In this document: positions 23,631 through 64,000 of the stretch, piece by piece
Layout: each line of letters opens with the position of its first letter
Position numbering within the stretch: position 1 is the stretch's first letter
Source: Psammoneis japonica
Lineage: Eukaryota
Assembly (NCBI GenBank): GCA_008632985.1
Contig: QPGO01000101.1
Location: 248,001-312,000, forward strand
Reading direction: 5' to 3'
DNA: 64,000 bases
Notes under the pieces: model-generated
Told to the model about the DNA's origin: nothing
The model's database searches: none
The model's input: the letters and a program-made list of their open reading frames with translations, nothing else
Program-made: the position numbers and the translations under genes

Positions 23631-24016
23631 CTCATTGTGTCACCGTCAGTTTCTCTGTTTGCCACAATCGCGCAGCACAACAGCTCTTCAGAGGAAGACC
23701 GGCTTTGCAAAATTTCAAACCTGTTTCCTGCACTCTGATGGTGACACTGCTGCCCCTCATCATGCATTTTCAACTGGCATTTCTTTCCAAAACAACCACA
23801 AATGCTGATGTTCATCGTTTTTCTTTGAAAACAACATCTGTGGTTGCATTTGTTTTAGTTCAAAAGATGAAATGTTCAATCCAAACATTGCAATTGATTG
23901 TCAATGACAAATTTGTTGTGCAACTTGATCGCTGCATTTGAAACTTTTAATCATGCAGATTCATGCATCAATGTTGGCCCTCACATGGGGCAGAAGCTTG
24001 CATCCAGCATGAGCTC

Positions 24017-25600: not shown

Positions 25601-27129
25601 TGACTTCTTGTCAGGGACAGTCACAGAAGGCTCTTGTGGTGCACACAACATCAATGAAAAAAAATGATTGGATGAGAAAAGGGGTGCACACAGGAGTTGA
25701 GGGAAAAGGGGGGAGGACACACGCCATCACACAAACAGGTGCCATCTTTGCAGATCCTCCTGATTTTGCATTTGGTTTTGGATTGACACTCTCATTTGTT
25801 GTCATCGTCCATGTGGTCAGCCCTCTGATCACGCACTCTGCAACAAAGAATTGTGAGCAACTTGCTGTGCTTGAGTCGTGTGCCAGGTTGCTCCTTGGGG
25901 CAGCACTTTCCAAACCCATGATTCAACATGCAATTGCACCTGCCATTGACACAAGGTTCTCCATGTTGCCAACTTGGTCAGGTGTGATGAATTCCTTGAC
26001 ATTGCCCCCCTGGGAACCCAGGTTGTTAGAATCACACAAGACTGGAAAGCTGTTGACAAACATGCACCACTCCTTTTGGGATTTGACATTGCAAAAAATC
26101 TGCGTGAACCAACAAACAAAGCTTGGCACTGGCGTGACATTTTGCTTTCGAACGGAGATTGCTCTTGGGAACTTTCATGACTGAACATGTTCTTGAACTT
26201 AACAAACTGAATGTCCACAATGACAAAAGACTCTGGGACACATTGCTGTCATTGCTGTTGTTGTGACAATGCACCACCATCATGTCACCAATTTTCAGTG
26301 ATGATGCGTGTGGCGCACACAAAGTTTCCAGCACAAAAAAATTCAGAAAGTCCCAATCATCTTGCCATCCATCTGCTCGTTGTGCGAATGCCTCAAGAAA
26401 GCTGGATTCTTGACAAGAAAGATTGGATTCTGAACAAGAGCAGTGACATTTTCCAGACAAAAGCCAATCACTTGTGTGTCAAGCAACCAGGCTTGCAGGC
26501 AGTTTCAACAGAAACAAAGTGTTGAGTGAATGTCAAAGTCACAACTTGCAGTTGGTTGGGCCATGCTGAGACAAAGCCAGCACACAAAACATCTTCAAAT
26601 CTGAAGCAGCACAACAAATGGCCTGGACTTTTTTGTGCCTCTCTTGTTGCTTCGATGGAAAATCACAGAATTGGGCTGTGTCAAGGTGTCTGAAATTTTG
26701 TGACACAGCAATGCTGTTGTTGAATGGTTGAAACACAAAGGGCCAGCACAAAGGGCCTGGTGGCACAGCTGTGCTCCAAAGTCATTGACCAGAAGAGGTC
26801 AAAAATCAGCCAACAACTTTGCAGTCAAATTGTTTCTCTCTTGTCATTTCAACAGGAAAACAAAGCACAAGGGCATTGAGCTCAATCTGCATGACACTGT
26901 GGCTCCATTTCAGGCACAAGCTGTGAAGTGCAGCAACGGTGCAACTGTTTTTTTTTCTTCCCACAAACACAATGCTGCCTTGCACTGCACCAGGATGTCA
27001 TGACCAAGGTGCTTTGCTCAGCTGTTGGATGGTCATTGTTGTGTTAAGTTGCAGTTGTTGTTGTGCTGTCCTCTGTTCTGGTGCAAATGTGGCTCCTGTG
27101 GCCACAATGTTTTTTGAAAGATTTTGGTT

Positions 27130-27280
27130 CTTCAAGAGCCAGTTGAGTGCGCTTTTGTGGGAAATGTTGTTGTGTGCCAAGCTGCTGAATGCATCTGATG
27201 CACCAACTGCCAGTGCAAAAACAGACACAGGAGCACAAAAAAAGTGTGGCAAGCCCTCATTTTGCAACATGCATTGTGCT
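27130..27280 (-). pseudogene. Eroded copy of the 5' end of the DUF445 gene (copy 1)
   Basis: CAPVSVFALAVGASDAF and HTTTFPTKAHSTG versus the gene's CVPVSVLALAIGTSDAF and HTTTFPTKSHSVG. Confidence 0.8.
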
Positions 27281-27489
27281 GCTGTGCTTCACACCTTGTG
27301 TGAACAGCTGTGCACACAATGCTCTGAGGATGCACCCCTGCACTGAATGTGGTTGCCAGAAACAACAAAACAAAAGATTGGAGACTCACCTTGCTTTTGC
27401 ACACTTCACCAGAAAATCTGAGATTGCTGCACTCTCATTTGCCGCGCAGCTTCTGAGCTCACTTGGCATGTCCTTGACATGCCTGTGTT

Positions 27490-27790
27490 GCCACCCAATT
27501 TGATTTTGTGGGAAACATTGTTGCGCAGCATCCAGAGCAAGATGTGGCAGCACAGTTGAACAAGCCACTGCCAAACATGTCTGATGCACCAATCTCCAGT
27601 GCAAGAACAGCTGCAGAAGCACAAAAAGCAGCACACAGCAACCCCCAATTTTGCAGCATCAGTTGTTGAGGCAACACACAAGTCATCGCAGCAGATGTCT
27701 TTCTCGTCCTCAACATTGACCATTGGCTCAACATCAAATGCTTTGATTGTGGATCAATGCACCGCTTGCAATGCTTCCACACTTTGACTT
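27490..27790 (-). pseudogene. Eroded copy of the 5' end and upstream region of the DUF445 gene (copy 2)
   Basis: AVLALEIGASDMF...MFPTKSN; upstream acacacaagtc...gcagatgtctttctc..tcctcaaca matches ~1160-1205. Confidence 0.8.
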
Positions 27791-29420
27791 GCTCTGATGC
27801 AAGATTGTCAGAAGAGAGGAAATGATGCAGCAACTCAAGGTTGTTTCATTGTTGCACTTTTGTTTGCTGTGCAGCAGCTGTGCACTGCAAATTCATTCAC
27901 TCTGCACCTTTTCAGTTGGCCAAACCACAGCATGAGAGAAAATCTGTTTCCTGCCCTGTTTCGCACAAGGACACTTCTTGAGTCAACAACAAACTGATTG
28001 CAAACACATGCTTGACAATGTGCGACAATCTGCAGCCAAACAAATCTGCCTCGTTTGTCATTCTGATCCTCACAAAGCATTGCCAATTCATTGCCAGCAA
28101 TTTGTCAAGCAATTTGGCGAGCAATTCACCACACTTCACCATGGCAAAACAAGGATTGTCCAAAATTTTTGATTTGACACCTCATTGGGCACAAGTTTTG
28201 AGGTGTGTGAACACAAAAGGTGTCTGTCAACAGCTGTGTGGCATTCAACAGCTTTCATTTCTCATGTGGGTGCACTTGAAAAAATCTCAAGAGTCAAATT
28301 TTGAATCCCAAACACAGCAACAAAGCAAAAGTCAAAGTGGGGCTGCCAGAATGAAAAATCCTGTCTCAAGCTGAAAATGATTCTGTGGCTCTGGAGCCGC
28401 TGAGCCACACAAAGAAAGGACAACCCAGATGCAAATTGTTGTGGCTTGCCATGGCATTGATGCTCAACAGCTGTGACAGGATGTTGACACTCTCAGTCGT
28501 GAACCACATCAAGCTTGAATTGCTGGAGACAGAGCTTTGCATCTGTGTGCTGAGAATGGTGAACAGACCAAGAAGCAAAGAGAAAAATCAAGAAGCTCAG
28601 AGAAAACCTCAACCAGGAAGAGTGCTTTGAGGCACTGCTTGCTGAAATTAAATCTCTTGTTGCATTGTGTCCAAGACGGTGAGCTTGGGTGCAATTTTGC
28701 AGGAGTCTGAATCCTCTTTTGCTCTTGCAGCTGCTTTCCTTGCTCCATGCTTGGTTGCCTTGGCTCCAATTCTTGGGTCAAAGTTTCAAAACAAAAAAGG
28801 AGCCGTGCTCCAGCCAAATTCAGTTGCCACCCCTCAAGTGCAGATGCTGGCACCTGCTGGCTCAACAAGTTGGTGGAATCAAGTCCCTCATCAGCAAACA
28901 CCAGCTGAAACAATTTGGCAAGCTTGTTGACCGCAAACAGAGCTTTGCACAAAAAATGGCTCAATTCATTGAGAATTGGTTTTTTGGAGGTCCCAATGCT
29001 GTTCCTGATGACAGGTTTGACGTGAATCCACACTGTTGGAGGGAGTTAGAGTCATGCCACAACATGCTGTGGGTTGCCATTTTTAATTTTCCAAAGTCAA
29101 TCTTTTGGAAGATGTGTGCATTCTTCAGTGAAGAGATCTGTTTGCCAGGAGATGGTGATTGGGAATGATCTTCGTGAGAGATGTCTGTTCCTTCCCAGAT
29201 GCATGATTTGGCAAGCAATCTGTCAGATGGCTTGTGAATCACCTCGATGCCATGAAAATTAGGCTGTGATCAAAACCTTGGGAGAAAGAAAGCTCTCTTG
29301 TAGCTGCACATGTGGAATGAACGCGAACAATGCAGTTAAAGCATTCATGAAGCCCAGCACATGTGTGCAAGAAAACACTTTTTAAAAACCAATGTAAACA
29401 ATTTATGTGTGGGGAAAATG

Positions 29421-32400
29421 TCACTCAAATGAGCCAGAACAATCCCGATTGTTCGGTGCAAGCGAGCTTTCGTCGCTTTGGCGATACGTCTACAGTCTCC
29501 AAGCAATCGTACAAAGCCCCTGCTCCAGTCGAGAACTGATTGGAAGGGACAAAGATGCAAAGCTTACGTTTACCCCGAATCGAGCAGGCGAAACTTGCAT
29601 TCGATTGTTGGTGCGCTTGAGGCGCGCAGCAGCATCCTCGTCGTCAATTTCCGTGGCAACGCGGGTGAGACCGAGCTTTTCAAAGACGGCATGTTCGAAG
29701 CGCTTTCCGCGATGCTCGGTGGTGTACATTAATTGGACCTCCAAGAAGTTGAGCAATGCTGGGCACAAAAATGTGAGTTTGGAAAGAGGCTGTAGTTGTC
29801 CAGTATTGTTCAAATATTCCAGCAAAGACCGGAAGATGCTTCTTGCTTTCTTAAAGGCCAGCAGGTGGTTGCGAATTGCACTGTACATCAACCCTTTAGA
29901 GGGATCAAATACGAGAATGCTGTTGAGTTGGACCTTGGATACAGGGCATTTGCAGTTTGTAAAAAAGCATCCACCGAATGTTGCCGAAATTTCCAATAAA
30001 TCTTGGTCCGTCAGGTTTGCGTTCTTGGTGACAAATGATTCGCGCACTTTCAGCAACCCGTCTTCAATGGACAATGAACCGATGGAAGGAAGAAGGAAGG
30101 TGTCCTCTTTTCGTTCAATTTTGGAGAGGCTAAAATCCCTTTTGATTGTGCTGGTCAATTTTGAAGCGAACGCGTCGGCTGAATCCACGGAGGGTGGTTC
30201 ATCCGTCGTTGGCTGCGCAAAATCCCATATGCGTTGGGTGATGCCTAAGGACAACTCTTTGGTCCTTGCTACTTGTAAGAACGGCATCACAAGATGCTTC
30301 ATCGCCGTAGATCTGGTTTCCCAGGGAAGAGAGACGGTGAAGACTGAGCGGACGAAGTTCTCTGACTTGACGATAACCTCGGTTGCCTTTGAAGGACTGT
30401 TGCTGGTCACCGCGAACTTCAAAAGGTCACCCGTACGTACTTGAAACACCGGATCGGTGAGGGACTCCCAACTGCCACACGTGATGGCATTCGTGCTGGC
30501 AGCATAAAGGTCATTAGTGGTAAAGAAGTTGGTGCCATCACTTTTTCTGTCGGTAACGGAGCCAACACCAAGAATTTTCAATACATCTGCACTCTGCGAG
30601 AACACAGCATCAATGACGGCTTTCTGTCGTGGTAGGTCCGGCGACGTTTCGAGAATGAACCTGATGAGTTCGAGGTTCTTCTGCCTGCAGGCAAATAATA
30701 AGGTTTGCTCGTCCAACTCTAAGACGCTGAAGCGGTTCAACAGGAACTTGACTAAACCGAGATGACCATGACAACAAGCATTGAGAAGCATTATCGTTGC
30801 CTCTATCTTTGTTGTTGCCGTATCAGGTACATTCGCAAGAATCGTTTCTAGACACTTGACGATCTCTTCGCCGGCCATGGCGTTCGCATTTGTGTAGTGG
30901 GTGAGGTTGAGGCCGTTCTTTTTCCAGTTTGGGTATGGCTTATCTTTTGGTTCCTCCCAGCCGTGGTCCATGGCAATGGCTAAAATGGAGGCAATCATCG
31001 ACGAAGCGGTTTGCTCTTCGATGAGTCGTCCAGTACGGCAAACGACGTTCAGTCCAGTCTCTACAAAGATATCGGCATCCCAGCCATTGCAGATTGTGTT
31101 GAGAATGTCGGAATTGGCAATATCGTTCTCCACTACAACGTCCAGCGTGATCATTCTAATGTCAGACGCGCGTTGGCTACTCTTTTTCACGGCAATCGCG
31201 ATCGCGCTTGAGGCAACCCGATAAACTAGAGAGTGATCTCCGGCCGTTGCCACGTTGGACAAGGTATTTTTCAAAATATCATCCGATTGTTGCTTGGGTA
31301 GATCAAGAATGAGACTACTGATTCCTTCGGGATCGCCTTGCACCTTGCGTAGCGACGTCATTCCTTCGTTCACCCAATCTAATGGGTCTGGACTGGACCT
31401 TTCGTCGGAAGAGCGGCAAGAACGAAGCGTTCGAGCCACGGTAAGCGCGGTATCAACAAAGTTCGTCAGGATGTTACTGAAAAGCAAAACGGGAATTAGG
31501 AGATATCATGTGTGTACAAATCAACGAAATAGCACATACCGAAATTCACTAGGCGTGAGACCTGCCGATATGTCTTCGTAAGTCATGTTGATCACCATCG
31601 CGGTTCCGGTACTTGGGCTCCAAAGTTTGGTCTGTCCCAGGTAGTTGTGCTCCAACGCCTTTCGCATTACTACTGTATCCGGCGCGCCTCCCCAAACCGT
31701 TGTCGAAACACGGAATTTCAGTCCAAGGGCAGGCCCAATAAAGATTTTGAGGTGGCCGTATGTGAAGTGGCACATTCCTGCCTCATCGAGCCGAAGGAAG
31801 GCGCGGATTGATGAATCAATTTCGGTAATGTAGGCTGCCAAGGCTCGCTTGACTGTTTCAACATCGGACTGCTTGGGAACTTCAACCGAGATGGGCGACA
31901 TCAAGTAGCCATTTATACGGCTCTTAACCGCATCCAGGTTCAGATTTTCTCGCCGACCATGAAGGAGCTGCAGAGCATCAGAGATGCAATAATTGGTGGC
32001 TGCTGCTTTAATCCTCTCTCCGGCTTTGATGACACTGTCAATAAAAGTTTCCAACATCTCACAAAATGAAGCCTTGGTGTTTTCTGCTAGTCTCGAGGAG
32101 ACGGAGAACACTGCTTCATTTTTTCCTTTGGTTGCTGCAGGGCATATAAGAAGATTATTGGAAGGATTTCCTAGCTCCAAGAGTGTCGAATAGGAAAGAA
32201 GCTTATCAGCGAATTCCGCAGGTTCAAAAGCACAGTAAACCAAGAAGCTCTGCCCCCGCTGAGGAACCTGGATGAACATCGTATGTTCCTCATGCCCAAA
32301 GGCACACACGCCATCGCGATTCAGTTGCAGGGAACGGCTGATCTGACGGCCAATTGCTTGAAGCAATCCATTCACTTTCTGAATTGGTGAGTTCTCCAAT

Positions 32401-32462
32401 TGTTTTGTGGGCGTCATGTTTTCGAGGCACTCCCTCACGGTTGCATTGTTCCGGATTCGAGC
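29421..32462 (-). CDS. 3' part of the ankyrin-repeat/CesT-domain gene, downstream of the copia insertion. Exons 32462-31540, 31476-29568 and probably 29489-29421
   Basis: Two CesT-like segments (LQLNRDGVCAF...FLVY; LRLDEAGMCHF...MRKALEHNYL...EFRNILTNFVDTA across a 63-bp intron at 31477-31539) and ankyrin-like ACCHGHLGLVKFLL and ACRQKNLELIRFIL. Confidence 0.7.
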
Positions 32463-32467
32463 ATGGC

Positions 32468-32703
32468 AGTCGAGATGCAGTCCTACAGCTGAGTGGGATG
32501 GATGAGACCTCGGAGGTTGGCAGCAATGTGAATGGCGACAGAGGCAAACAGACGCTTGTTGAAAGTCGTTGTCTAGAAAATTTGTGACGAATGTCATTGC
32601 TTCTGTTTGAATCGATTTTGTGATGAGCTAATTATTTCGAAGAGAAAATCTGAGTCTGGGTTGCAGTTGTGAGATGCGACCAGAATGACGTTGAGTCGTG
32701 ACT
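32468..32703 (-). repeat. 3' LTR (236 bp)
   Basis: Colinear with 39479-39714; ends AGTC...GACT. Confidence 0.95.
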
Positions 32704-32724
32704 CTCCCTCTCAACCGAGAGAGC

Positions 32725-35700
32725 TTGCCAGCCCACAAGAGCCTTTCTGGCCACACGGAACGCATCGGTCCGCAGTCCCTTCGTGAACTGATCGGCCAGT
32801 TGCTCTGGAGTGCTGATGGGTTGGATGTCGATCTCCAATTGTTCGACTTTAGTCCTAAACCAGTGGTGCGGGACACCGATGTGTTTGGTTCGCGGAGACA
32901 ACTTGGGCATGCGTGCGAACTTGAGGCACGCGGAGTTATCTTCGCACACAATGGACGCAGGTGGGACATTCTGCTCTACAGGCGAGTCATCGGTGCCTTG
33001 GGTTGCGAGCTCAAAAGCCTTGGAGTGAGTCGTGACAGGGTTTTGGCGGTCAGACTTTCCGAGTGCGTGGTGGTTGAGCTCCTTGAGAACTTCACGAACA
33101 GGGATGAGATCGCGCACAGCTTGAGAAAGTGCGACACATTCCGCTTCCACAGTCGACAATGCTGCAAGAGTCTGCAGCTTGGACACCCAGATGAGCGGGC
33201 AGCCGGTGCAGCAGATGAGGCATCCAGTCCTGGACTTGACAGAAACTGGGTCTTGACCATCTTCCACACCAAATGACCCCGCGAAGTCAGAATCGATGCA
33301 GCAATCAACTCGATGATCTTGCGCAGGCTTGAGAATGAGACCTTCAGCAGCAGTTGCTTTGAGGTGTCGGAGCATCCGCTTCACTGCAGCAGCGTGGGAC
33401 GCTCGGGGCGCAAACGAGAATCGAGCCACTTGATGTGTGGCATGTGCAATGTCTGGCCGGCTGTTCGCTGCCAAGTGCATCAACACTCCAACAACTGAGC
33501 GATGATCGTGGGGTTCATCAAAAGGCAGGCCGTCCGTGTCGGCACCAATGGCCGCAGGTAGAGCTGGAGTGGATGCTCCATTGCAGTCCTGCATCTGTGC
33601 AGTGCGCAGGACCTTGTCAATTAGACCGGGTTGAGCGAGTAGAAATCGACCCTCGGAGAGCTTTTCGATCTTGATGCCGAGAAAGTTGCCGACTTCTCCT
33701 TCGTCTCTAAGTTCAAATGCGTGGCGATGTTCGTCGTCGGAGACTCCTGACTTGCGAATTTCGGCTTCTAGAGCTTCAGCTGAAGCTCCAGCAAAAACGG
33801 TGTCGTCGACGTGCACCACACACATCATGCCCTCTTTGAAATACAAACAGGGATCTGTGGCTGAAGGTGCCCATCCGCGCTCGGTTAAACCAGCTCGCAA
33901 CTTCTTGCAGAAGCCCTTGGGAGACTGTTTTAGGCCGCACAGTCCTTTCAAAAGTTTGAGAACCACATTGAGTCCCGACCTTGGCGCAAATCCCTTCGGC
34001 GGTGTCACACAAACTTCCTCGGCGACATCAGCTTGGCAAAAGGCTGTGGTGCAGTCCACCTGTCGTGCAGTCCATCCCTCCTTTAATGCCGCAGTGAGCA
34101 TGAGTCGGATGCTGGACCATTGCACAACCGGCGCGTGGGTTTCAAAAGCAGTCGACTCCTTCTTTCTGCAAATCACCGCGGACGCAGTGTCGGGCCTTGC
34201 ACTTGAGAGGGGTTCCATCTGGGAGTCTCTTGAGCTTTGGTGCCCATGTGCCTGGAAGTGCATTCACATGCGGCTGACGCTCGACTGCTTTCCAGGCTTG
34301 ACGATGTGTGAGTGCGTTGACTTCAATTTTCATCGCCTCAATCCATTCGTCAGCGTCCGGACCTTTCAGAGCTTTGTTCGACGAAGGCATGTCAGGGTCC
34401 TTGGTTTTCTCACTAGCTGCGCAGGCTCGTGGATCGCCGACATTGATGGCGCCACTGTCCAAATCCGTCTCGAGAGTCGCCAGATGCGCCAGTTGAGCCT
34501 CGTGTCCGATCGGCAGTGGCATTTCCTCGACGGAGCTGAAGCAGACCTCATCTGCAAACTTGGCAGAGTTGAACTGTCCCTTGGTTGACCGTGAAGACCG
34601 TCGCAGCCCTGGTGCTCCCTCTGGATTCGTCACAGGAGGTGTCTCGACTGGGGGAGGAGCTGTTGGTTCCGTCAGCGCTTCAGGTGGCGGAAGTCCGTTG
34701 CCATCTTGAGGTTCAGGTGGCTGAAGTGGCGCAGAGTCCGCAGAGTCTGCAGGAGTTTGAGTCGCAGGTGGGACTGGTGGCGTTGGCTGCTGAGTCGCAG
34801 GTGTGACTCGATCGGCAACGTCGTTGCAAGAAGTGGGTGAATCCGGCACAGCAATCGATGGAGCAGGCTCAAAATGCCCGCGAATGCGTGTTGCTCTGGC
34901 CAGTTCTCGTTCTTTACGTTGACGCTCTGGAGGGGTGAGCCACTCATCGTGTGAATGAACTGCCTGATCCTTCTCCAGAGGGATGCATGTCGATTGGTTG
35001 AGGCACAAGTGTTCCCAGTGATCAGGTGGATCCGTCTCCCTCTCGATTGATGGTGCGGCAGTGAAGAGATCGTCAAAGACCACATGACACTGAGGTGCAA
35101 CACTTCCAGTTTGAAGATTGAGGACCAAAGGAACCTCACTGGAATGGATGGCACTGAGTCCCACGAACAAAGCGCGACGAGTGCGAGGCTCCCAACGCGG
35201 GAGCTTCTTCCCGGAAGCAAGGGTCGGGTCAAGTACGTACGCTGGACATCCCCATGTGTGAATGTCGCGCAACCGATGTCTTGGCACTGTCGAACCGGTG
35301 AAAATGTCCGCTGGGCAATGTCCTTTGGAATTTGGGGTGACATTGTAGATGTGCGTGGCACAAGAAACTGCCATGGGCCATGGGGAGCTGTCAATTCCCC
35401 CCTTCCAGTGGATTGATGCATGAAGCAACATCGCTCTCGCCATGTTGGAGATGCTGTGGATGCCCCGCTCTGTGACGCCGTTCTGATGATGGGCGTTGGT
35501 TCCACAAAAACGGAGACGTTGTTCATGTTCTCGTGTGTGTTGTACAAAAGCGTTGGCCTTGAAAGCGCCACTGTCGGTAAGAAATTCTTGGACGATGACC
35601 CCGTGGTCCAAAGCATGTTTCTCAAACGCTTGCTTCGCGCGTGTCGTCTCAACAGCGGAGAAACCTGGTTGGTGCTCGACCTGGACATAGCCAGAGGCGT

Positions 35701-38700
35701 GGTCGACAAAGATGCAACCGCCCTTGAATTGCTTGGACATGGCTTTGCCATGAGAGTCGAAGGTGTGGCCTAAAAGGCGCGACTCAAAATGATCAACGCT
35801 GACAGCCTGACCCGGTCGAAGATGGTCAGCTCGAAGGGCCCCGTCGCGTTCAGGGACTGTCGACTTGTGAGTAGATCCAAGAGAGCGTCTGTGACCTTTA
35901 GCACATTCGCATGCCTCGCATCTTGGGTGGTCACACTTCGCTGCGGACTTGAAACGGTTCGAAAGGAACGGAACTGCGCGGAGAAGTGCTTGGACGCAGC
36001 CAAAGTTCAAATGGCCAAAACGGGCGTGCATTTCGAGAAGAAGCTTTTGGCCTGCCGTGAGGTTTTGATTCTCCTTGTTAAGGATCTGAAGGTTCACTTG
36101 AGGAGCGGCAGATACGCCCTTGGTCATCGACGCAACGGGCAAGTGGCTTGATGGATGATGTGGCACGACCAACTTGCCCATCCCGTCAACATGTAAACGG
36201 AAAGTGGTTTCATCGCCCTCACACTTCCCACGTACCCCCTTCTCTTCGTTGAAGAGGCGTTGAGGCGACAGCAGGCACTGACGGGCTCCAGGGACGTAGC
36301 ATGCCATGGTGTTCAGTTGGATGGTAGCCCCACTCGGCGTTGTGAACACCCACGCAACCGGACCGGCACCCTGGATGGTAAGACCGTTGGCAATCCCATT
36401 GATCTGTAAGGGATTCTTGGGAACAGTCACAGGCCCCGTAAAATCATCTTTGTCGGGGGCAATGGCTAACGTGGCACCAGCATCCATGACGACCGTGAGA
36501 GCCTCGTCCGACAGACCGATGAGTGCCTGCGGATCGGATGCAAGGAGGTCGGCTTGTGATTGTCCGGTGAGCAGTTGGATGGTGGAGGTGTTGTAGACGA
36601 CTGGTCTAACACTTGCTTCCTCCAACAGTTCCACAGGATCTTGAAAATGGGCAGTGTCCACGACATGATGCGGCAGACAGAGCTCGTCAAACCGGAAGAA
36701 ATCCGGGCTGAAGTCCTCAAGAGCGTCAAAGAAATGCTTCTGGTCGTCGAGAGGTTCCAGTTCCTCACAGGCATCAAAGAAGGCTGATTCGTCTATCGCA
36801 TCAGACCGTTCAGCTACTTCCAGGCTCTCCCAGCAGGCCTTGAGACGAGTGCTCAGTGCGTGTGACGGATGGCGCGTGACAAACTCGGTGAGTGCTTGCG
36901 TGCCTTTGATCCTGTGATGTTCGAACAGTGACCCCACATCCAACACTGTCCGGTCATCTAGCTCTTCCACAATGTGGTAGACTTGAGAGCTGGCGGTCGA
37001 AAAACGACTTGGTACGTTCGAGAATGGATGCTCGGGCTGTTGACTGGCGTAAACTGCTGACCATGCCATCACTGCAACGGATGGGACCATCCAGGAGGCT
37101 GGAAACCCGTGCAAAGTTGGGAGTTTGCGCTGGCGGCGTAGAGCTCGAGGGATGCATGGGATCGGAGCAAAGCAAAGATGTGGTGCCGTTTCCCAAAACA
37201 TGGCGGCGAGCCAGAATGTGAACAGCTTGACTCGACCCAAGAGTGAGCGACGCGAAGTGGGCTCGTCTTCGACGTCCTCGTGACAATCATCCGCATCCAG
37301 GACCTCTGGATCGTAGAAATCGAAGCCACGACACGTGACACACGGAGGCAAGTCGCAGCATGCGTCTTCAAAGTGTACGTCGTGTTCAAGGATGAGATCC
37401 AACTTGGTGTCGTCTGACAGCACATCCGTCAAATGTGCGGGAGCGTCAAAGAACTCATCTGGATGCTTGACAGAGTACAGCTTCGAGGCCGGAAACAACT
37501 CAATGGCCGGTGGTTCGTTTTCAAAGGTAGAGAAAGCATCGGAGCATTCGCAGAAGTCATCGGCGTCTTCGGGAGTGACAGTCTCAACCACGATGGGAGA
37601 CACGACTGGATCCACGACTGAGGTGAGCACAGGTGGGCTCGTTTCGATGCAAACCACCTCAGTGCTAACGACTGCATTGCTCTCCCTCTCGGCCGAAGAA
37701 GCCGGAGTAACAACAATTGCAGCAGTGACAGGGGCGGAACAGAAATCCGGGTCGGCAACGGGATCCGTAGCCGCGCACCACATTCCCGTGAAAACCAACT
37801 CGTTGGGGTCGGATTCGTCTCCCTCTGGTGCCTTGGCAGTCTGAGCGGGCGGACCCATGGGCACGCCACTGTCTGGATCAGCAACGGAAGACAAATTCCC
37901 GGCTGGGGTCTCATTGGGAGGTTGCCTGCGGTCGTCGGCATGTTCCGCGGTAGAGTGTTTCTGGTGGATTCCAATTTTGTCGGCACCCTTTGCCGTGCAC
38001 GTGGCACACCACTTCCATTCCTTGCCATTCTTGTCCTTCTTCATTTCTCCGTCAAATTTAGCACGCCAGGCAGCGATGGGTTGCCTCTTCTTCTTGGAAG
38101 GGTCGTCTGCAGGCGGCGGATTGGGAGGAGGATCGTCGCGCGGCGGTTTGGCGTTGCACTTCGGACACGTCTTCTTGGTGTGCCCCTCGAGACCGCAACC
38201 ACAACAGTGCTTCATCTTCCCAGGGCCATCCGCAGTCGAAAGATTACTCTCAGGTAGCTTGGCGACTAATGCAGGCCATTCCCCGTCCTTCACGAGTTCG
38301 TTGTGTTGCTCTTGAATCCACGCAATGATGCCGACCGGTCCGAGCGTTTTGCAATCGCTGTCGGACACGATGTCAGCAGGATTCTTGAGGCGGCACTTGC
38401 GTTCCATGGCCTTGACGTCGTCGAGCTTGTTGCAGACTCGGCGATTGAAGTGTTCAGAGGACGTAGAGGAGATCTTGTGGAGCAGCTTGGAGCTTGTGTT
38501 CGCCGGAAGCACGCAGTCGGTCTGCACAATTTTCACGATGCGAAGAGCTTCGGCAGCAAAATCCGTGCAATCCTCGCCGGGATGGCCAACCAAACTGAGG
38601 TCTTCCAGCTGCTTCTCAGCCGTCTCAATGTCCGTCAGAGCGCTGGCATTGCAAGTGTCGAGAGCCATCATGAACAGAACAGATCCAGGGCAGTCTTGGC

Positions 38701-39316
38701 AGTCCGAAAGATGGTTGAACTTGGTCTCGATTTTCTCGCGAAAGGCATCAGTGATTCTTGAGTGAACGAGAAGTTGAGAGAGCCCGACATCGTCGAGCTC
38801 GATCTCGTCGTACTTGGTGTCATCGGCAGCTGCTTTCCCAGCCATGCACTCGTTCACGAGATCGGTCACAGCAAACTCGTGAAGATGGTCGAAGACACAT
38901 TGAACCTTGTCGTCGCTGTCCTTGACATGGCAGAACGTCTGCTGACCGTGGGCTTCCACTAGATCTCAAACAGTCTTGACGAAATGGTCCTTGTCAAGCT
39001 CGTTGATGGGACCGTCCGAAATCTCAAGTCGACCGTTGAACTTGGAAGTCATTGCGGAAGCTTGTTGACCGCAGAGAGATCGTTCTGTCGAGTCGAGAGC
39101 CTTGGGATGACGGCGCTGAGAGGCGAGTCGGCAGGTTCTGTCGTTGGATTGTTCGCAGTTGTTGTTGAGTTTGGAACCACCAATGTGAACCCCGTGGGCT
39201 GGGTGAACTCCACCACGCAACGGCTTGGTTGGAGCCGGAGGAGCGGTCGCCGCGGCGTCAGCGGCCATTGCATTGGCAAACGCCTTTGCCAGAACATCTG
39301 GATCGATGGTGGCCAT
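32725..39316 (-). pseudogene. Copia gag-pol polyprotein pseudogene
   Basis: Zn knuckle CxxCGLEGHTKKTC, protease MDAGAT, integrase HARFGH..CEAC and SVDH/TDSG/NGVTER, RT LCGLKQS and HVDD, RNase H DSDFAG/EAEC/EDN/ADQFTK. Lesions: in-frame TGA at 38966-38968, frameshift near 34142, and the presumed stop read as CAA at 32725-32727. Confidence 0.95.
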
Positions 39317-39478
39317 GATGGAGAGTGCAGTGTGGGAGGCTCTTGTCAGAGTGAAGACGAGAGAAGCGAGAGAGACTCAGCCATTTCCCGGGTTTGCTTC
39401 AACATCAAAAACCGAAAGCGTCCGTGACGATGACTCGGTCAGGAGCTCTCGTCAATGCGCAAATTGGTCTCTGTGGCC

Positions 39479-39714
39479 AGTCGAGATGCAGTCCTGCAGC
39501 TGAGTGGGATGGACAAGACCTCGGAGGTTGGTGGCAATGTGAACAGTGACAGAGGCAAACAGACGCTTGTTGAAAGTCGTTGTCTAGAAAATTTATGATG
39601 AGTGTCGTTGCTTCTGTTTGAATCGATTTTGTGATGAGCCAATTATTTCGAAGAGAAAATCTGAGTCTGGGTTGTAGTCGTGAGATGCGACCAGAATGAC
39701 GTTGAGTCGTGACC
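39479..39714 (-). repeat. 5' LTR (236 bp)
   Basis: Colinear with 32468-32703. Confidence 0.95.
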
Positions 39715-42498
39715 ACAGTGCAACGGGCTTTGTCCTTTCATGTCAGTCTCTTGTGTGTTCATGCCCAACTGGCCCACCATGTGGCGCAGGATGGCAATGC
39801 TGTCATGCTCTACAGCGCAGTGAGCAAGTGTTTCACCGTTTCGACCACGGGTGCCCGGTTTGACAACGTCAACCACCCAGGATACAATTCTTGGATGCCC
39901 TCCGTGGCAAGACGCTTTGAGAATCGCTGTGCTTTGATTTTCGATGTCGGCTTTCAAAAAGAACTGCCCAATCCACTCGTGCAACTTCAAATGACCAAGT
40001 TCGGCAGCTCGTGCAATGACGGATTCATCATTCTCGCCACGGTGCGACATGTCGAAATTGAATGTCTCTTTGAGCCAGACAACAAAGGAGAAGCGGTTTT
40101 CACTCCCGGCGGTTCGAACGTTGTCGGCAGACAGCACCGCCATCATCAAGTTCTCGTTCTTCTCCTCCCGAACAGCTCGCACCTGCTCTGGGGTCTCGCG
40201 TGCATTCAACAGTGTCTTGACGGTCTGGAATTCGCAAAAGCGTGCGGCTTCTATTACGAGAGGTTCCAACGTTCTTCGGGGGCACTCGACTTTCTCACCA
40301 ACAAGTGTTGTCAACACATCTAGAGAAATGCCTGAACCAACAAGACTGTCCAAGAGCTTTCTCGCCTGGTCCTCGCTTGTAGGAGTGACCATTTCAACAG
40401 AGTGCAGACACCACGCAAGGAAACTGGCTCTGCGCTGAACGTCAAGTGGGTGCTTCGGAGCACCATTCTTTGTCCTGTTTTCACCAAGAATGGCCAAAGC
40501 TGCCTTTACCGGGTCCTCGTTTACAAGCCGTAGCATTGGTTCGGAGAACAGACTCGCAAGCGACAAGTCTGCCACTTTAAGTGCCTGTTCTAGCACCAGA
40601 TTTTGCAAGCCAGTACCTGGCGTCTTCTCCTTGTAAAGAGAATCAACGAAAGGTGCGAGTTGTCCAGTCCGCACAGACCAATTCGGCGCATTTTGAATGA
40701 CCTCGCTAAGAAAGATATCCAAAGGCACATCAATGCCACAGTCCCTGTCGATGTTGTTGATCTTATCTAGGTCACCCAAGCTGTTAGAAAGCACAGTGCC
40801 GTTCTTGGCCGCCATCATAGAGAGACTCGAGCTTGGAGTTCCCTTATACGCGAGACCATGGTGCTCCAGACAATCAATCAGTGCACCAAACCCTTGACGT
40901 CTGCATGCCGACTCAAATAGCTTATTCACTTCAGATTGAATAGTGCATTCTTTCAAGTCTAGATCTTCGCGACGCGAGAGAAGAATGTCGATCAGATCAA
41001 GCGCACCGCTGGATACACAGTGCTGCAAAACAGACGTTCCACTGTTGTCGCGAGTGTTGATGTCCATGTGTTTACCCCTACAATGCTCATCATAGAAGTC
41101 TAGGTCCAACAAAAATTCGAACAGCTCTTTGGAATGTGTCTCGGCAGCCATTGAAAACAGGTTGCGTCCCTCCCAGAAAGGTTCGTTTAGAAATTTCGAG
41201 GCCTTGCTCAAAAGATATGCAAATATTTCACGGTTCCCATTCTGGGCAGCGCAAACCAAGCAGTTGAAGCCATTGCTGTGCTTGTAGTCCCAGCTTCCGG
41301 GCGCAAGTTCAAGGACACATTTTACAGTCTTGAACGACCCAGAGCCAATGGCTTCCTCCAGATAAGTCTCAAAATTGATTTCTCGCAGATCAAAAGAAAG
41401 ATCAGCTCCCTTTGCAACCATCATTTGAACTAACTGATAGTTTCCCTTTCGCAAAGCCAAGCGAAGAGATGTAGTCATGTCAGCACGATCAACACTCTCA
41501 AGCAACATACTGCAAGTCAAGGGCGAATGCCAGCGCAACAAAGCATTGTTGATGGGGTGGGAGATAGCCCACGCTGACCACATAGAGGCATCATTAGCCT
41601 GTAACAATCCAAGACTCATCTTGTAGCTTGCACACAGTAGCGCCTCATCCAAAATGGTGAAGCGGAATTCATCAATGCAATCGATAGCGAGGTTGAATTC
41701 TTTCAGCAAGAGCTGAAGCATTTCAGGAGAATGAACGGCATAATGCCCCAACGTGGAAAGCAAACTATTGTTTTCAGTCTTTACACCCAGGTCTCGCAAC
41801 TTGACAACAATCTCGACATTGCCGCTGCGAACGGCATTCGAAATGACGCTACCATCAGCATCAATGTCGTCCACCTGAGACATCCATTCCAACGTCCAGT
41901 CAACATCACCAGATAACGCTACAAAGACATAAGCAACGTCTTCGCCCGACCATCCGTGAGCTCTTTTCCACTCTGGCTGGGCGTTGTACTCGTTCACGAG
42001 GCGCCTCGTCTCTTCCTTACGGCCCAAAGCCGCGGCTTCGGGAAGCTCGACGATCGCTTTCTCATTACTCTCGAGACTCAAAATGTATTCCAAAGTCTTG
42101 TTAGCCTTGTGAGAAATAGCCTCGGTAAGCGCACTACAGAGCGATTCATTCCGATGTTGCAAGATATCGGCGCCGAAGCGCTGAACCCAATCTTTGAGAA
42201 TCGTGACAGAGTCATTCGCAGCAGCCACCATGACTAAATTCAACGAAAGATAGTGGCTGTATTCCGGATCATAGCCGAATCCATCGATATCAATGATTTG
42301 GTACTTGTGGACGTTGCGCATCCCGAGTCTGATGCGTTCTCGTCCAACGTTACCTTGCAGAGCCGCGTCTGGATAGATACACAAATCCAAGGCACTTCCT
42401 GACCCGGGCATCATATCGAAATCCCAGGCATTTGGGTTAGACGACGTGGGATCGATCGGAACGCTGTCCGAGTTAGATGGCTCGTTCTTGTTACTCAT
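39715..42498 (-). CDS. 5' part of the large ankyrin-repeat protein gene, interrupted by the copia element
   Basis: Many ankyrin repeats (NAVRSGNVEIVVKL, LALRKGNYQLVQMM, AAQNGNREIFAYLL, GETLAH, GQSPLH). Probable start MSNKNE at 42498. The frame continues exactly at 32462 once the element and one TSD are removed. Confidence 0.85.
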
Positions 42499-42999
42499 GG
42501 TGCTGCTCAAAGCAAAAGTAGTGTGTACGAACGCAAGGTAAGAAGAGAACGGGGACCTGAAATCGAGCAAAGAACATACGTGACATCGACTCTGCTCTTC
42601 GTGAAAAGACCAACTAAGAAAACAACATCGCCCCGCGCCGCGCACAGATAAATCAAAAGATGTTGAACGATTCCCACTTACAAGGTAGCTGGATCTGAAG
42701 CGGATGAAGTGGGCACGAAGTCTCTCTCTTATCAGGGAAGCTTGTTGTTCTCACAAGAGAAGTGATGAGGGCGTGCTGCGCCGCAGAGCCAGAGCAAACG
42801 TCCGAAAGACGAACGAAGCCAATCGTGCACATTCAACATGGACACAGCGGGGTAATTTGTTTGAAAGAAAGACGGACCCCTACAGCGGCGCCGTGAATTG
42901 CGCGAAAGTGTGCATGAGCGGTTTAGTCTTGAGTCCATGGGGTGCACACGATAACAGAAGAAAGAGTCCCCCCCCTCCCCTCTGTGTCCGGAACCCCAA

Positions 43000-45900
43000 T
43001 CGTGCATTGCGTGCTGCACACGCGATGGCCGCAAAGAACCAGCCGATGATTCTGCAGAGGCCTCAAGGTGACACACAATGATTGGACTCAAAGCAACCAG
43101 GATGACCAAAGGTGACACACAAAAGACTCTCAAGATGTTGAAATGCTTTGATTTTGGAGCACTTGAAACATGAGTAAAAAGCTCTGAAGGACGCCACATG
43201 TCCTCACCCATTTTCACCCACCCCCCAGTGGCGCGAAAGCAGAACAGGTGCGAAGTCTCAAGAACATCAGCATCGCCTTTGTTGCAAGTCAAAATGTGAG
43301 AAATGAATTGTTGCGCAATCTGGTCAATCAATGTGATGCACCTGTTGATTGTGCATTTGTGTGTTTCTTGCTGTCAACACATCATCGAGATGCTGAGACA
43401 TTGCCCCGCAGCAGCAGAATTTTTGACTTTGACCAATCTGCACCCCGGCACTTGATGCTGTGCAAGTTGCAGCTTGACTCTGCTCAAATTAGAGAATTGA
43501 AAAACATCTCTCTGCTTTTGCAATGGCCTGCTGTTTTTCCAGTCTAAAACATGAAGAGCCATGTTCTGTTCAATCTGGCTCGGTCATGTGATGGCAGGGC
43601 ACTGGCACTCCTTGCTCTCAGTTGCATGTTGCGGCACTGACAGAACAGCATGTTGTGACATTGGGAGGCCTGCTCCAACTCTTGGTGAAATGCTTCTGAA
43701 CATCCTCACAGTTTTGGCACCAGCTGTGTTTGCAGCAGATGAGCTCTCCAAAAATCCCCGGGGTCCGTGTCAGCACGTTTTGATGTGCTCTTCCATGGGA
43801 AGCATGAGCTCCCAGGGAATCATGACTGGTGCCACTTTGTTTCACACCAGCATTTTCCCACACTTCCCCTCTCACACTGTTGCATCTTGTCACAACAGGT
43901 GCAAGCCACAAGGCATCTGGAGTGAGAGGGCCAAGGCTGCAGCACAGAGCTGTGTGGCGCTCTTTGTCACTGTGCAGTGCTTCTTGTGTCTTCTGACATT
44001 GTCAGTTGATGTGCTCTTGTTCCTGCATTTGCCAGGTTCACACTGCACACATTGCTGCTGCCATCACAACAAGGGGGCCTTTTTTTGCCCCAAGAGGACA
44101 GACAGCAGAATTTTGCGTGGCACAGCTGCAAAAAAATTCTGAGTTTTTGGGGCACTGAACTTGTGCAGCAAGTCAATCGCTCAGCCATCATCTCTTGCAA
44201 TGGCATTGTGATGACAAGCCCACAGTGCACACTCAAGCTGAACAATGAAGGCCCGCAAGCTCTCATTTGTTGTCATTTTGCCATTTTGCCTGCATTTTTC
44301 ACACAGGTGTTGTCTCAAATTTGAAACGCACAAAATGAAAAAAGCACTCGTCATTGAGGACAATCAACAACAAAACATCTCTGCAAATTCTCAAATGGCG
44401 GACGACTCTCTTTTTTGTCACAGAAAATGTGGTGGCGATGCACTGCTTTTGACCCCCCATTGTGCCATGCCTCAACATTCATGTGTCCCACTGTTTTCAC
44501 CAAGATCTCTGTTGTCTTTCTGACTGATTCATTGAAGACAATCAAAAACACAAAACATCTCTGCAAATTCTCAATCAGCAGACAACTCTCTTGTTCTTGT
44601 CACAGAAAATGTGGTGCGGCGATGTGCTGCTTTTGACCCCCCCATTGTGCCATGCTGCAACATTCATTTGTCCCACTGTTTTTACCAAGATCTCCATTGA
44701 CCTTCTGACTGATGCTTGTAGATTGGGTTTGTGTGTCAAACAATGGGAAGCCACTCAAAGAGTTGCTTTTGCAAGATGACAGACCGGTCGGAAGAGGACA
44801 GACCAATTTTCTGCTTGTGCCCTGGACAGTCTCTCTGCTGCCCGCTGGCAGCTGGAGTGGCCAGCAGTTGGTGGTTGTCCGTGCAGACACCATGACACCA
44901 TGTGTGCCATTTCTGGCTGCGGCAATCCTGGCACTGATTCTATGAGACAGCACACAAGACAGCACACTTTGCATGAAAAAAGCTTGCCGGTGATTGATTT
45001 GTGGCCCCCACCCCTGTGGCAGGGGAGAATGTGGTGATGTCATGGTTGTGTCACAGATTTGCATCTCATTCATTGTGTTTTCATGTGAGCATCCTCACAT
45101 GCATTTGTGCATTTGCACACAAATGCCAGCGGCAGCAGAAAAAATCCTGAACCACATTCTCCCCTAAAACTCTGACCTCCAAAATCCGGGGGCATGGAAA
45201 TGCATTTTTTGCAGCTCTTTTCTTTGCACAAAAAACATGCGTTTTGACAACTCAACCATGATGGTGCCTCTTGGTTCTTCCCCATCCACTTCCCAGGATG
45301 CCGATCCCACTGATGCCGTTGCCAACAACAGCGACACAACAGGTGATGTCATTGTTCCGGTTCTCGTGGGTGTGATGCACACAAAATAAGATGCTGCAAA
45401 CTCACACTGTTGTTTGCATGCTCCACCGCCTCCCACAGACATGCTGTCACAAACTCCAATGCCGTGCCTGCGTTTCGGGCCCCTGGCATGCCCAATGCTG
45501 TTGCTCCTGCCCTTGCTGCTGCAGGCATTGTTGACACTGTCATTGTCTTTTGCCAATGATGTCTACAATGAAGTGCCAACAACACTTCTTTCATTCTTGC
45601 CCCGCCGCCTCCCAAAGGTGCTGCCATGAATTCAAGTGCCGTGCCTGCATTTGGCCCACCAGTGTTCCCGATGCTGTTCCTCCTGCCCTGGCTGCCACAG
45701 GTGCTGTTGACACTGTCATTGTTTTTGCTTTGGAAGGAGCGCAGTGGATGATGGCGGACCAGGAAACCCTCACAACCATGGCCTGCTGATGGACGAGTGT
45801 TGGTGTCATGGCTCTCATGCTTTCTGTGTTTGTTCATGGTTTTCTGGTTTTGGTTCAAGGAGGACAATCAACAACAAAACATCTCTGCAAATTCTCAAAT

Positions 45901-60492: not shown

Positions 60493-60843
60493 TCTGTCAA
60501 TGTGAATACGATGTTGATATTCGTTTCCTTCCAACTGCGCTGAAATAACGATGAATTGCTCGACAATGAAAAATTCAAATGCCTGAACCCTCACAATTTA
60601 TGAATGTGAACGCAAGCTACAGCAGTAACAGGAAGAATTGAAACAGGGGAAGAAGGCATGACATGTACAGCACTTGTAAGGATAACGCCAAACGCCTTGT
60701 AACTTACCGGTGTGCGGTATGGCGGGTATCGTACCACACCCACACCGTCGGTTCAACTTGTATCCGCGATTCGGGGATCGTGGATAGCCCTAGTGGTCCA
60801 AGGACGGACACACAGCATTTTGTCGCCAATTGCGACATTCCCA

Positions 60844-63546: not shown

Positions 63547-63633
63547 AATGAACGGGCCGAGAACTGTGGTGCGCCCACTTGGTTAAGTGGGCGTGCCAGA
63601 GTTTTCGGCCCGTTCACTTTCTACGTGGCCTGG
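63532..63633. repeat. ~100-bp hairpin (49-bp arms, ggtt loop) overlapping the foldback terminus
   Basis: ccaggccacacagaaaatgaacgggccgagaactgtggtgcgcccactt-ggtt-aagtgggcgtgccagagttttcggcccgttcactttctacgtggcctgg. Confidence 0.85.
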
Positions 63634-64000
63634 CAAGGACTGAGGCGAGCGCGCGGCCACACGAAGTTGTCAGTCCCGCCCACTCGTGACTCAGTGCATT
63701 TCCACGGTGAAAATTGCGCAGGAATCTGACGATGACAAAAACGGTCAGATGACTTCCACTGACTGCAATGTGAGCCGCACCTGACGTACATTCTTTGTTT
63801 GTTCACAGTTGAGTTGACCATTTCAGGCGTTGCATGCAGTTGCTTTGACAAATTGGAAGTCATCCGAGACAAAACACAAATCGCACGGAGTGCCGTGGAT
63901 TTGCACGCAATGCAGTGCTTGGCGTCATTTTGGTGAAATTCATCAAAGTGACTGCATCCAACGCTCAAAGGTGTTAATTCATGCACAAAAGAAGATGCAA

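Follow-up and report, generated by a model that had tools for sequence, protein, structure and literature searches.

In mutation-accumulation lines of Bigelowiella natans, the organism in which a process close to the one described here has been reported, 231 single-nucleotide mutations were recorded in two integrated viral regions, 230 of which were A>G or T>C changes, all on TpA dinucleotides, at a rate of about 6e-7 per site per generation or roughly 1000-fold above background (10.64898/2026.01.13.699255). According to the available text of that preprint, the B. natans genome also contains clusters depleted of TpA and enriched in CpA + TpG, with reverse transcriptase (RT) and DDE domains enriched among the TpA-depleted coding sequences, and the authors (Mettrop et al., bioRxiv, dated 2026-04-14) propose that an ADAT2-like DNA adenine deaminase acts as a defence (10.64898/2026.01.13.699255). 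Such an agent is still hypothetical, also for B. natans. Repeat-induced point mutation (RIP) of ascomycetes is, in the available portions of the sources, a DNA-level and dinucleotide-specific transition hypermutation. Repeated or mobile DNA is hit on both of its strands, single-copy DNA next to it is affected as well, and the resulting blocks stand out by their composition (PMC7296669, PMC2621366). APOBEC3 and ADAR likewise act by deaminase-type hypermutation, yielding retroelement copies that are inactivated and whose transition spectrum is skewed (PMC4866542). Full-text literature searches found no description of TpA>TpG/CpA hypermutation besides the B. natans preprint. Here we analyzed a stretch of 64,000 nucleotides (contig QPGO01000101.1, positions 248,001 to 312,000 of the forward strand; henceforth the window, whose own positions are used throughout), which at 32467-39713 on the minus strand contains what its sequence identifies as a 7.2-kb Ty1/copia long terminal repeat (LTR) retrotransposon. 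It is, in our view, very likely that this copia element was inserted in a host gene and that the chromosomal double-stranded DNA was thereafter subjected to a region-directed hypermutation converting A:T to G:C at TpA.

The original prediction, made from the letters alone, had concerned positions 32725-36000, in which invariant tyrosines and the stop codon of a copia pol gene were said to be systematically converted. That stretch is the pol end of the larger minus-strand element, and the signal was not limited to it, instead extending past both the stretch and the element as such. The parts of the element that carry the coding evidence are as follows.

34142-38965, minus strand: 1607-codon open frame with gag, protease, integrase and the start of RT, aligning with full-length relatives
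34145-34148, minus strand: frameshift, a run of four T versus three in most other copies, as read from the sequence and from its comparison with contigs of sequencing run X1
32728-34140, minus strand: RT and RNase H frame, inside a 543-codon stop-to-stop open reading frame (ORF) at 32632-34263, with Pfam RVT_2
32725-32727, minus strand: CAA at the position of the relatives' pol stop, with the polypurine tract and then the 3' LTR coming next

All eight motifs named in the prediction were found in the minus-strand translations (VVHVDD, LCGLKQ, KCKAR, GVDCF/FETHAPV, DIAHA, SRTGC, EAEC and CEDN), and the loss of tyrosine at these motifs was confirmed overall, with the reservation that KCKAR and DC.ET are insecure cases because the closest relatives carry Phe there, with a consensus of RFKARFCARGD and GVDFFETY. 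The claim that the frame reads GW-CAA in place of GW-stop also stood, as 78 of 80 relatives end exactly at ...GW. The downstream frame, matching RVT_2 with an E-value of 3.7e-28 and 99 bits (cut-off 31.6), had 238 homologues, and when it was aligned with 80 homologues (identity 58-60% at best), giving 260 columns conserved at ≥80%, none of the 11 conserved Tyr columns was found to be kept (5 His, 5 Cys and 1 Phe, the latter being located in the out-of-frame leader before the frameshift), while other conserved residues were mostly kept. The His or Cys of the query at the 10 in-frame Tyr columns was seen in 0 of 80 relatives at nine of them and in 1 of 80 at one, that is, in one case total among all of the 80 relatives. 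We also compared the whole polyprotein with those of 79 related metagenome loci, 26 of which had frames of ≥900 codons and were translated, using a MAFFT alignment in which the query was read through with an X at the frameshift; the whole polyprotein could be aligned to these 26 full-length relatives. Of 13 conserved Tyr columns in that alignment, 1 was kept while 7 had become His, 4 Cys and 1 Phe, compared to 303 of 343 non-Tyr conserved columns being kept (Fisher p = 3e-10). Thus His or Cys had replaced Tyr in 11 of 13 conserved columns, as compared to 40 changed among 343 other columns. The total content of Tyr was 11 among 2110 residues, compared to 2.3-3.9% in the relatives, with 10 of the Tyr codons left in the 34142-38965 frame (9 TAC and 1 TAT), TAC thereby accounting for 9 of the 11 remaining in the element. 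At the catalytic YxDD box of RT the element reads HVDD, compared to YVDD in the relatives inspected, and because of this replacement the copy is a dead member of Ty1/copia.

To assess the direction of the changes, each replaced column was analyzed for a single base change leading from a codon of the conserved residue to the present codon, with the neighbouring bases considered. In the RT/RNase H part, 17 of 35 replaced conserved columns were explained by one TpA step, constituting 17 of the 24 single-step replacements, with the remaining columns being 1 CpG-type, 2 other transitions, 4 transversions and 11 multi-step changes. Both strand classes were found among the TpA-type changes, with seven of TpA>CpA type (five Tyr>His, one Leu TTA>Ser and one Val GTA>Ala) and ten of TpA>TpG type (five Tyr>Cys, three Met>Val after T, one Thr>Ala after T and one Ile ATA>Met). 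The composition of the element agreed with this, since it had only 66 TpA with an observed/expected (obs/exp) ratio of 0.18, at a CpG ratio of 0.91, compared to a median TpA ratio of 0.70 in the 79 related loci, 78 of which fell within 0.38-0.92. The two products were equally common in the left flank of the element, with 3303 CA and 3277 TG.

The timing of the changes could be approached through the LTRs and their surroundings, using the following features.

39478-39713, minus strand: 5' LTR, direct repeat of 32467-32702
32467-32702, minus strand: 3' LTR, with 15 sites differing from the 5' LTR, all transitions
39714-39718, minus strand: upstream copy, CTGTG, of a candidate target-site duplication, as read from the sequence
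32462-32466, minus strand: downstream copy, CCATG, of the same candidate duplication, as read from the sequence
39714-40463, no strand: single-copy host flank with TpA loss (leakage), X1 depth about 61
32217-32466, no strand: single-copy host flank with TpA loss, 2 TA observed versus 14.8 expected

The two LTRs of one insertion are both copied from single RNA segments (U3, R and U5) and are therefore identical at the start. Here the two direct repeats, of 236 nt each and 7011 bp apart, were 94% identical, and their 15 differing sites included 0 transversions and fell at TA, CG, CA or TG steps in 14 cases. These differences comprised 4 sites of TA versus CA or TG, 3 doubles of CA versus TG (6 sites), 4 sites of CG versus CA or TG and 1 other transition. 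A CA/TG double is what two independent outcomes of one ancestral TA (or CG) would leave. Both LTRs retain TA at 2 sites and a single one does so at 4, the corresponding figures for CG being 9 and 4. The candidate 5-bp target-site duplication (CTGTG/CCATG), in which 3 of 5 positions match, showed the same property as the LTR pair, since its mismatch is also a CA/TG double. In the flank next to the 5' LTR, three consecutive 250-bp windows had 2 TA versus 14.1 expected, 0 versus 13.4 and 4 versus 14.4, whereupon the values went back to 8-11 of about 16, and CpG was normal across the TpA-poor host flanks. At least part of the TpA changes thus arose after integration, because the LTRs, identical at insertion, now differ and because the flanks were also hit. 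The prediction that a DNA-level process converting TA to TG or CA on both strands had killed the RT without adding stops was hence borne out, with the strand classes, the LTR pair, the candidate target-site duplication and the flanks all in agreement. Of the two findings named beforehand as speaking against it, active relatives with His or Cys at these positions and changes of a single strand class, neither was seen.

These data also bear upon A-to-I editing of the retrotransposon RNA, by an ADAR- or ADAT-like enzyme and fixed by reverse transcription before integration. An A>G change after a 5'-U is the preference of ADAR, according to the available text of the preprint (10.64898/2026.01.13.699255), and hyperedited retroelement copies exist in animal genomes, as described in the available part of another source (PMC4866542). 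Editing of RNA would, however, give only A>G on the coding strand, where 7 of the 17 TpA-type changes are T>C, and it would leave the 15 differences between initially identical LTRs unexplained, as well as the same signature in single-copy flanks and non-retroelement DNA; we therefore find it very improbable as the explanation. The contrast that the prediction had drawn to single-strand RNA or cDNA editing accordingly holds, with LTRs that differ and single-copy flanks that were hit. ADAR or APOBEC editing prior to integration, which predicts one strand being hit, both LTRs alike and clean flanks, was also rejected as a candidate, since both strands were hit, the LTRs differ and the flanks were affected.

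We found that the loss of TpA is regional and not a property of the copia element, with three blocks of the window being concerned.

1429-29046, no strand: TpA-free block, with all 27 one-kb windows at 2001-29000 having TA obs/exp of 0.00-0.10
42953-50096, no strand: TpA-free block, TA obs/exp 0.04-0.10 in 7 of 7 one-kb windows
61045-64000, no strand: TpA-poor block, TA obs/exp 0.11-0.16, continuing beyond the window

TpA had an obs/exp ratio of ≤0.10 in 35 of the 64 one-kb windows and was erased from 58% of the window. The 27-kb block had 75 TA in total, with 0 TA versus 67 expected at 3001-4000, and in the TpA-free blocks the CpG ratio was 0.12-0.71 and that of CA + TG 1.39-2.04, compared to a TpA ratio of 0.34-0.71 with CpG at about 1 in the genic stretches. 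The block edges were sharp, as exemplified by a last TpA at 42952 followed by only three up to 43800. A six-frame stop census of the 27-kb block gave 1262 TGA, 85 TAA and 34 TAG, and because TAA and TAG are nearly gone, many long frames are found on both strands of the block. Ten internal repeat pairs, the LTR pair included, displayed 24 CA/TG doubles. Fungal RIP was tried as an explanation and rejected, as TpA is depleted and not enriched, the direction is TA>CA/TG, and TAA + TAG amounted to 119 against 1262 TGA in the 27-kb block. In our reading the copia element became a target rather recently, with TpA mostly gone and CpG still there, and the surrounding blocks are old and saturated targets that have also lost CpG, presumably via methylation.

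Ordinary decay, through CpG methylation-deamination, GC-biased gene conversion or pseudogene drift, finds some footing in the CpG-type differences that do exist (4 in the LTRs and 13 among listed private variants, see below) and in the GC content of 52-56% in the element versus ~48% in its flanks. We nevertheless hold its chances of accounting for the footprint to be practically negligible, since TAT and TAC are out of reach of CpG decay, GC-biased conversion does not single out TpA and would not bring one kb from 67 expected TA down to 0, and drift would not strike 12 of 13 Tyr and yet leave 88% of the other conserved residues in place.

Two unrelated former genes within the TpA-free block give the polarity of the change.

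14315-15799, minus strand: dead copy of an unannotated family with a uracil-DNA glycosylase (UDG)-superfamily fold, 495 codons with 0 Tyr, inside the TpA-free block
24020-25096, minus strand: former coding frame, located where the TpA-free block is repeated in the genome, X1 depth 850-970 versus 64 in unique DNA

The first of these had 69 homologues (best E-value 3e-31), and the 6 columns having Tyr conserved at ≥60% were occupied by 3 Cys and 3 His. The second had a single homologue (P0191), being 51% identical over 180 residues and matching no Pfam family, whose 7 Tyr within the aligned stretch face 4 His and 3 Cys. Among 72 scanned frames of ≥150 codons outside of the element and the large host ORFs, none of those located in the TpA-free blocks gave a match above the Pfam curated cut-off. 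Positions 22000-26668 are repeated in the genome, with a summed depth of 514-1276 versus 64 in unique DNA, while 26669-29000, being equally TpA-free, is single copy at ≥90% identity, so the loss of TpA is not limited to repeats that are still recognisable. Within the second TpA-free block we also noted a 1.5-kb tandem duplicate (44356-45861 and 45860-47365) with 99.9% identity and 1 CpG-type difference, which is either very recent or an assembly duplication.

These observations define the direction, dinucleotide specificity and strand symmetry of the changes, together with their regional extent and leakage. With regard to mechanism, a Ty1/copia element would first have inserted into a host gene, whereupon the integrated double-stranded DNA would have been attacked, with the A:T of TpA becoming G:C, which reads as TpA>TpG or TpA>CpA depending on the strand. 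Tyr codons, being only TAT or TAC, would thereby turn into Cys or His, the active-site Tyr of YVDD included, and TAA and TAG would be destroyed, with the pol stop becoming CAA and TGA, from TAA, being the only stop that could be created. With so few stops being made, the dead element would keep very long open frames. The targeting would track a silenced or repeat domain and not the retroelement life cycle, the editing would spread a few hundred bp into flanks while sparing neighbouring genes, and the CpG loss in the blocks would be the expected product of long-term cytosine methylation. A role in genome defence and guidance by silencing marks are what we infer from this pattern, and the chemistry, by analogy with the proposal for B. 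natans, would be that of an enzyme deaminating DNA adenine to hypoxanthine.

The surviving TpA dinucleotides furthermore suggested a context preference. The base 3' of the A was a T in 6% of surviving cases in the element (132 strand contexts) and in 6% in the TpA-free blocks (256 contexts). A T was present there in 30% of cases among the normal relatives, 78 in number, and in 27% among host genes (chi-square p of 9e-10 and 5e-24, respectively), and in the old blocks T[A]A survived best (49% versus 21%). We therefore tentatively regard T[A]T, about five-fold poor among the survivors, as the preferred target context.

Such a footprint could also be given by another chemistry, namely TET/JBP-type oxidation of the thymine of TpA to 5-hydroxymethyluracil or 5-formyluracil, pairing with G and hence yielding T>C. 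The sequence data contain only A:T to G:C changes of TpA on both strands, leaving the attacked base of the pair ambiguous, and the preferred context reads equally well as A[T]A. In dinoflagellate DNA, 5-hydroxymethyluracil is preferentially found at TpA and TpC. Moreover, 5-formyluracil promotes T>C mutations, and in protists and fungi the TET/JBP genes are frequently tied to mobile elements. On the other hand, no TET/JBP domain was found in the window when its 12 largest frames and 72 further ones were searched with Pfam, and adenine deaminases, both tRNA-directed and engineered, prefer an A after U or T, as is familiar for TadA. The same preference is given for ADAR in the available text of the preprint, and the only published proposal for a TpA signature, likewise as available, is an ADAT2-like adenine deaminase (10.64898/2026.01.13.699255). 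Taken together we judge thymine oxidation to be unlikely, and adenine deamination is the chemistry that we favour.

We next considered how well the sequence itself is supported. Contigs of the public run X1 contained 63% of the sampled words in 30000-39999, with one contig of 5707 bp (depth 63.9) spanning 26808-32514 with 3 differences and another spanning 39686-41999 with 2. These contigs reproduced the TpA-free single-copy DNA at 26808-29046 as well as both element junctions. The five positions at which the window differs from X1 (28637, 32399, 32412, 40828 and 41263) are all transitions, one being TG/TA, two CG/TG and two others, and X1 thus does not reproduce the assembly letter for letter. 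Since the type of library behind X1 is not recorded and the run may share its sample with the assembly, we regard its support for the sequence as good and not fully independent, with accurate short reads being deduced from the clean 31-mer contigs at a depth of about 64. Another run (X2), the kind of which is not on record, covered only genic parts at low depth, and no RNA data set was listed as containing 30000-39999. It is known that heavily modified DNA can give systematic long-read consensus errors, and a sequencing or assembly artefact, for example through miscalls of modified bases at TpA and CpG in long reads, would agree with TpA and CpG being depleted together in the blocks and with the presence of a 1-nt homopolymer frameshift. 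An artefact is nonetheless hardly credible to us, as only 3 differences in 5707 bp separate the window from the X1 k-mer contigs that reproduce 26808-29046 and the edges of the element, and as the depletion of TpA in the element is not accompanied by one of CpG.

How much of the TpA loss in the element occurred at this locus is a separate matter. By comparison of the LTRs, the loss since insertion amounts to no more than 22-56% of the TpA site-copies deduced for that time. In run X1 the element had a summed depth of 4000-6250 versus about 62 for unique DNA, corresponding to about 65-100 copy equivalents at ≥90% identity, and it differed from the other copies by 131 transitions and 21 transversions. 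Among the 40 of 154 variant places that were listed, the private changes inside the element included 13 of CG>TG/CA and two of TA type (33749 and 35667). At 33749, the codon of the Leu>Ser change, TA is kept in about 97% of the depth that belongs to other copies, so editing is not uniform across copies or sites.

It could accordingly be that most of the TpA loss, Tyr codons included, predates the insertion, with an edited or TpA-avoiding source having been copied in trans by active relatives. This alternative, which we find doubtful but would give appreciable weight, draws upon the loss of 22-56% per TpA site-copy in the LTRs versus a near-total loss in RT/RNase H, upon the family size of about 65-100 copy equivalents, and upon the private changes being mostly CG>TG/CA among the places listed. 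Against that, the 40 listed places seem to be those with a near-100% share, while independent editing predicts intermediate frequencies; an RT with HVDD is unable to copy itself; the leakage into flanks and the differences in LTRs and target site prove that editing took place at this locus; and the T[A]T preference could account for uneven loss. Strong effects of context and position may likewise be an alternative cause of the uneven loss.

Several points do weigh against our preferred reading of an insertion followed by editing of the integrated DNA. Part of the TpA loss may be inherited from an edited source copy, because an LTR loss of 22-56% is to be compared with an essentially total loss of Tyr codons in RT/RNase H. 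The other copies of the family, numerous as given above, may or may not share the Tyr changes, and the TA kept at 33749 in most of their depth shows that editing is uneven. The preference for T[A]T is derived from survivors only, some of which could be new TpA formed via other mutations. A Pfam search of 12 + 72 + 2 frames of the window gave neither a deaminase nor another candidate enzyme, and the evidence here is throughout a historical footprint, without de novo mutation. That the organism is one other than B. natans, and hence a second lineage for TpA editing, is moreover only probable.

With regard to the architecture of the element, the 1-nt insertion at 34145 breaks the pol frame and splits the two element frames, and other copies in run X1 lacked this one letter in 520.5 out of a depth of 627.2. 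Pfam matches to gag_pre-integrs and SH3_retrovirus in the 34142-38965 frame were weak, both being under the cut-off. The LTR termini differ from the canonical TG...CA and no primer-binding site was identified in the element, while a further feature adjoins the 3' LTR.

32703-32712, minus strand: polypurine tract GAGAGGGAGA, adjoining the 3' LTR, with its function surmised from position

When the 25 longest among the 120 homologues served as tblastn queries, all of the 50 matches in the window lay within the element, and no further copia copies were thus found. The closest relatives were 57-61% identical, unnamed proteins from metagenomes or genomes. The order of gag, protease, integrase, RT and RNase H in one frame is shared with Ty1/copia (Pseudoviridae-type) elements of marine protists, such as diatom CoDi, as are RVT_2, short LTRs and a pol end of ...GW in the relatives, along with a candidate 5-bp target-site duplication; this likeness is by description, an assignment to CoDi or to any host lineage being conjectural, and the copy here is dead.

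The host frames on the two sides of the element are an ankyrin-repeat ORF (39714-42750, minus strand) and a CesT-like ORF (31521-32466, minus strand). Because these frames are in phase after removal of the element plus one 5-mer, for which the chance of a match is 1 in 3, the element probably sits inside, and has split, a host gene, as judged from the sequence. The ankyrin ORF had 0 Tyr in its last 262 residues, which are nearest to the insertion, versus 19 in its first 750. Another host ankyrin ORF (29490-31505) had no match among 5.8 billion proteins within the length range searched. Among the 12 largest frames of the window, Pfam found only host ankyrin, FG-GAP and CesT-like domains, and the scan of 72 further frames gave one match above the cut-off, a DOT1 domain in a genic frame. 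In the genic part with normal TpA we noted this DOT1-like methyltransferase frame at 51506-52300, as well as an unbroken host frame of 2447 codons at 53254-60597 on the minus strand, also with normal TpA, having at least 9 FG-GAP repeats and beta-propeller signals. In protein-atlas look-ups the DOT1-like frame matched a mixture of Haptophyta, Oomycota and Nucleocytoviricota, and the RT of the element one of Basidiomycota, Streptophyta and Bacillariophyta, so that neither pointed to a single lineage.

The family represented by the dead frame at 14315-15799, comprising at least 69 proteins, was not recognised by Pfam in any of 12 relatives scanned (12 of 12). An AF2 model of one intact relative (P0122) had residues 190-506 mostly at pLDDT above 90, and in a wide search with VIA-align the top 11 rows were all UDG-superfamily chains (Z 8.0-10.9, 148-206 residues aligned), with SMUG1 at Z 10.9 and also being the best Foldseek match (E 2e-3). 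On the basis of this model the family is assigned a UDG-superfamily alpha/beta fold, with glycosylase activity being only putative. A profile search against PDB sequences gave only short matches to PPR repeats, which were judged as spurious, and a search of viral contigs with one pattern gave 13 matches, 0 of which were confirmed as members of the family. The presence of a dead base-excision family within hypermutated DNA may be a coincidence or reflect a counter-defence of mobile elements.

The process may also have left traces elsewhere. One of the related metagenome loci (L078, a contig of 1789 bp from an unrelated data set) encodes a distant copia RT of 41% identity that reads TCVDD, and it had a TpA ratio of 0.04, CpG of 0.20 and CA/TG of 1.67, compared to normal values in the other 78 related loci, which suggests that the process occurs beyond one organism.

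A hypermutation of A:T to G:C targeted to TpA would mirror fungal RIP and would be a eukaryotic counterpart of deaminase-based antiviral defence, and such a process can evidently saturate tens of kb. TpA-free DNA with almost no TAA or TAG gives long false ORFs in six frames, which confuses gene finding, and edited genes losing Tyr while gaining Cys and His are missed in profile searches. The combination of zero tyrosine and CA/TG doubles between repeat copies should therefore be a simple diagnostic for other genomes. A more far-reaching view, which to us could equally well be right or wrong, is that TpA editing in a lineage other than B. natans is the main long-running defence, having built TpA-free compartments (58% of 64 kb), hitting integrated LTR elements, damaging adjacent genes and preferring T[A]T, with the removal of stops leaving 'ghost' frames that could seed new proteins and, as a bolder layer still, with the UDG-fold glycosylase of mobile DNA being a counter-measure.

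Comparing the locus with the known systems, it shares with RIP all of the general properties listed at the outset, while the polarity is the opposite: RIP, as described in the available sources, turns CpA into TpA, lowers GC and makes stops, whereas here TpA is destroyed, GC goes up, and TAA and TAG vanish. The existence of a TpA-free single-copy stretch also makes a dependence upon repeats open to doubt here, in contrast to RIP. APOBEC3 and ADAR, in the available part of the source, act before integration on the cDNA or RNA and on one strand, with C>U (read as G>A) or A>I changes (PMC4866542), whereas here both strands were affected, after integration, and flanks too. Similarities were greater with B. 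natans, where the available text of the preprint describes the same targeting of TpA only, giving TpG or CpA by strand, the same restriction to regions that are foreign or silent, the genes next to them being spared, and the same long-term depletion of TpA with gain of CpA + TpG. The genic TpA content was 3.4% of dinucleotides here (633 in about 18.8 kb) versus 6.0% in B. natans, according to the same text, and the intron-free frames of 1035 and 2447 codons in the window argue against B. natans as the source. There were also differences in the targets and in their degree of saturation. In the window, the target that could be resolved best is an LTR retrotransposon present in many copies, the word 'LTR' being absent from the preprint text as available, and the TpA ratio was 0.00-0.10 over 27 kb, compared to a Rho of 0.45 in the hypermutable nucleocytoplasmic large DNA virus region of B. 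natans, where clusters, as far as the text describes them, are defined from 3 kb and the 5% genome cut-off for Rho is already 0.43. Old blocks here have lost CpG too, unlike what that text describes, and it makes no mention of the leakage into flanks, LTR-based timing or T[A]T preference seen here. To what is known from B. natans this locus thus adds that the target can be an LTR retrotransposon, that the DNA is hit once integrated, that the effect leaks outwards and can saturate a whole genome compartment, that it is coupled to CpG loss and that a trinucleotide seems to be preferred.

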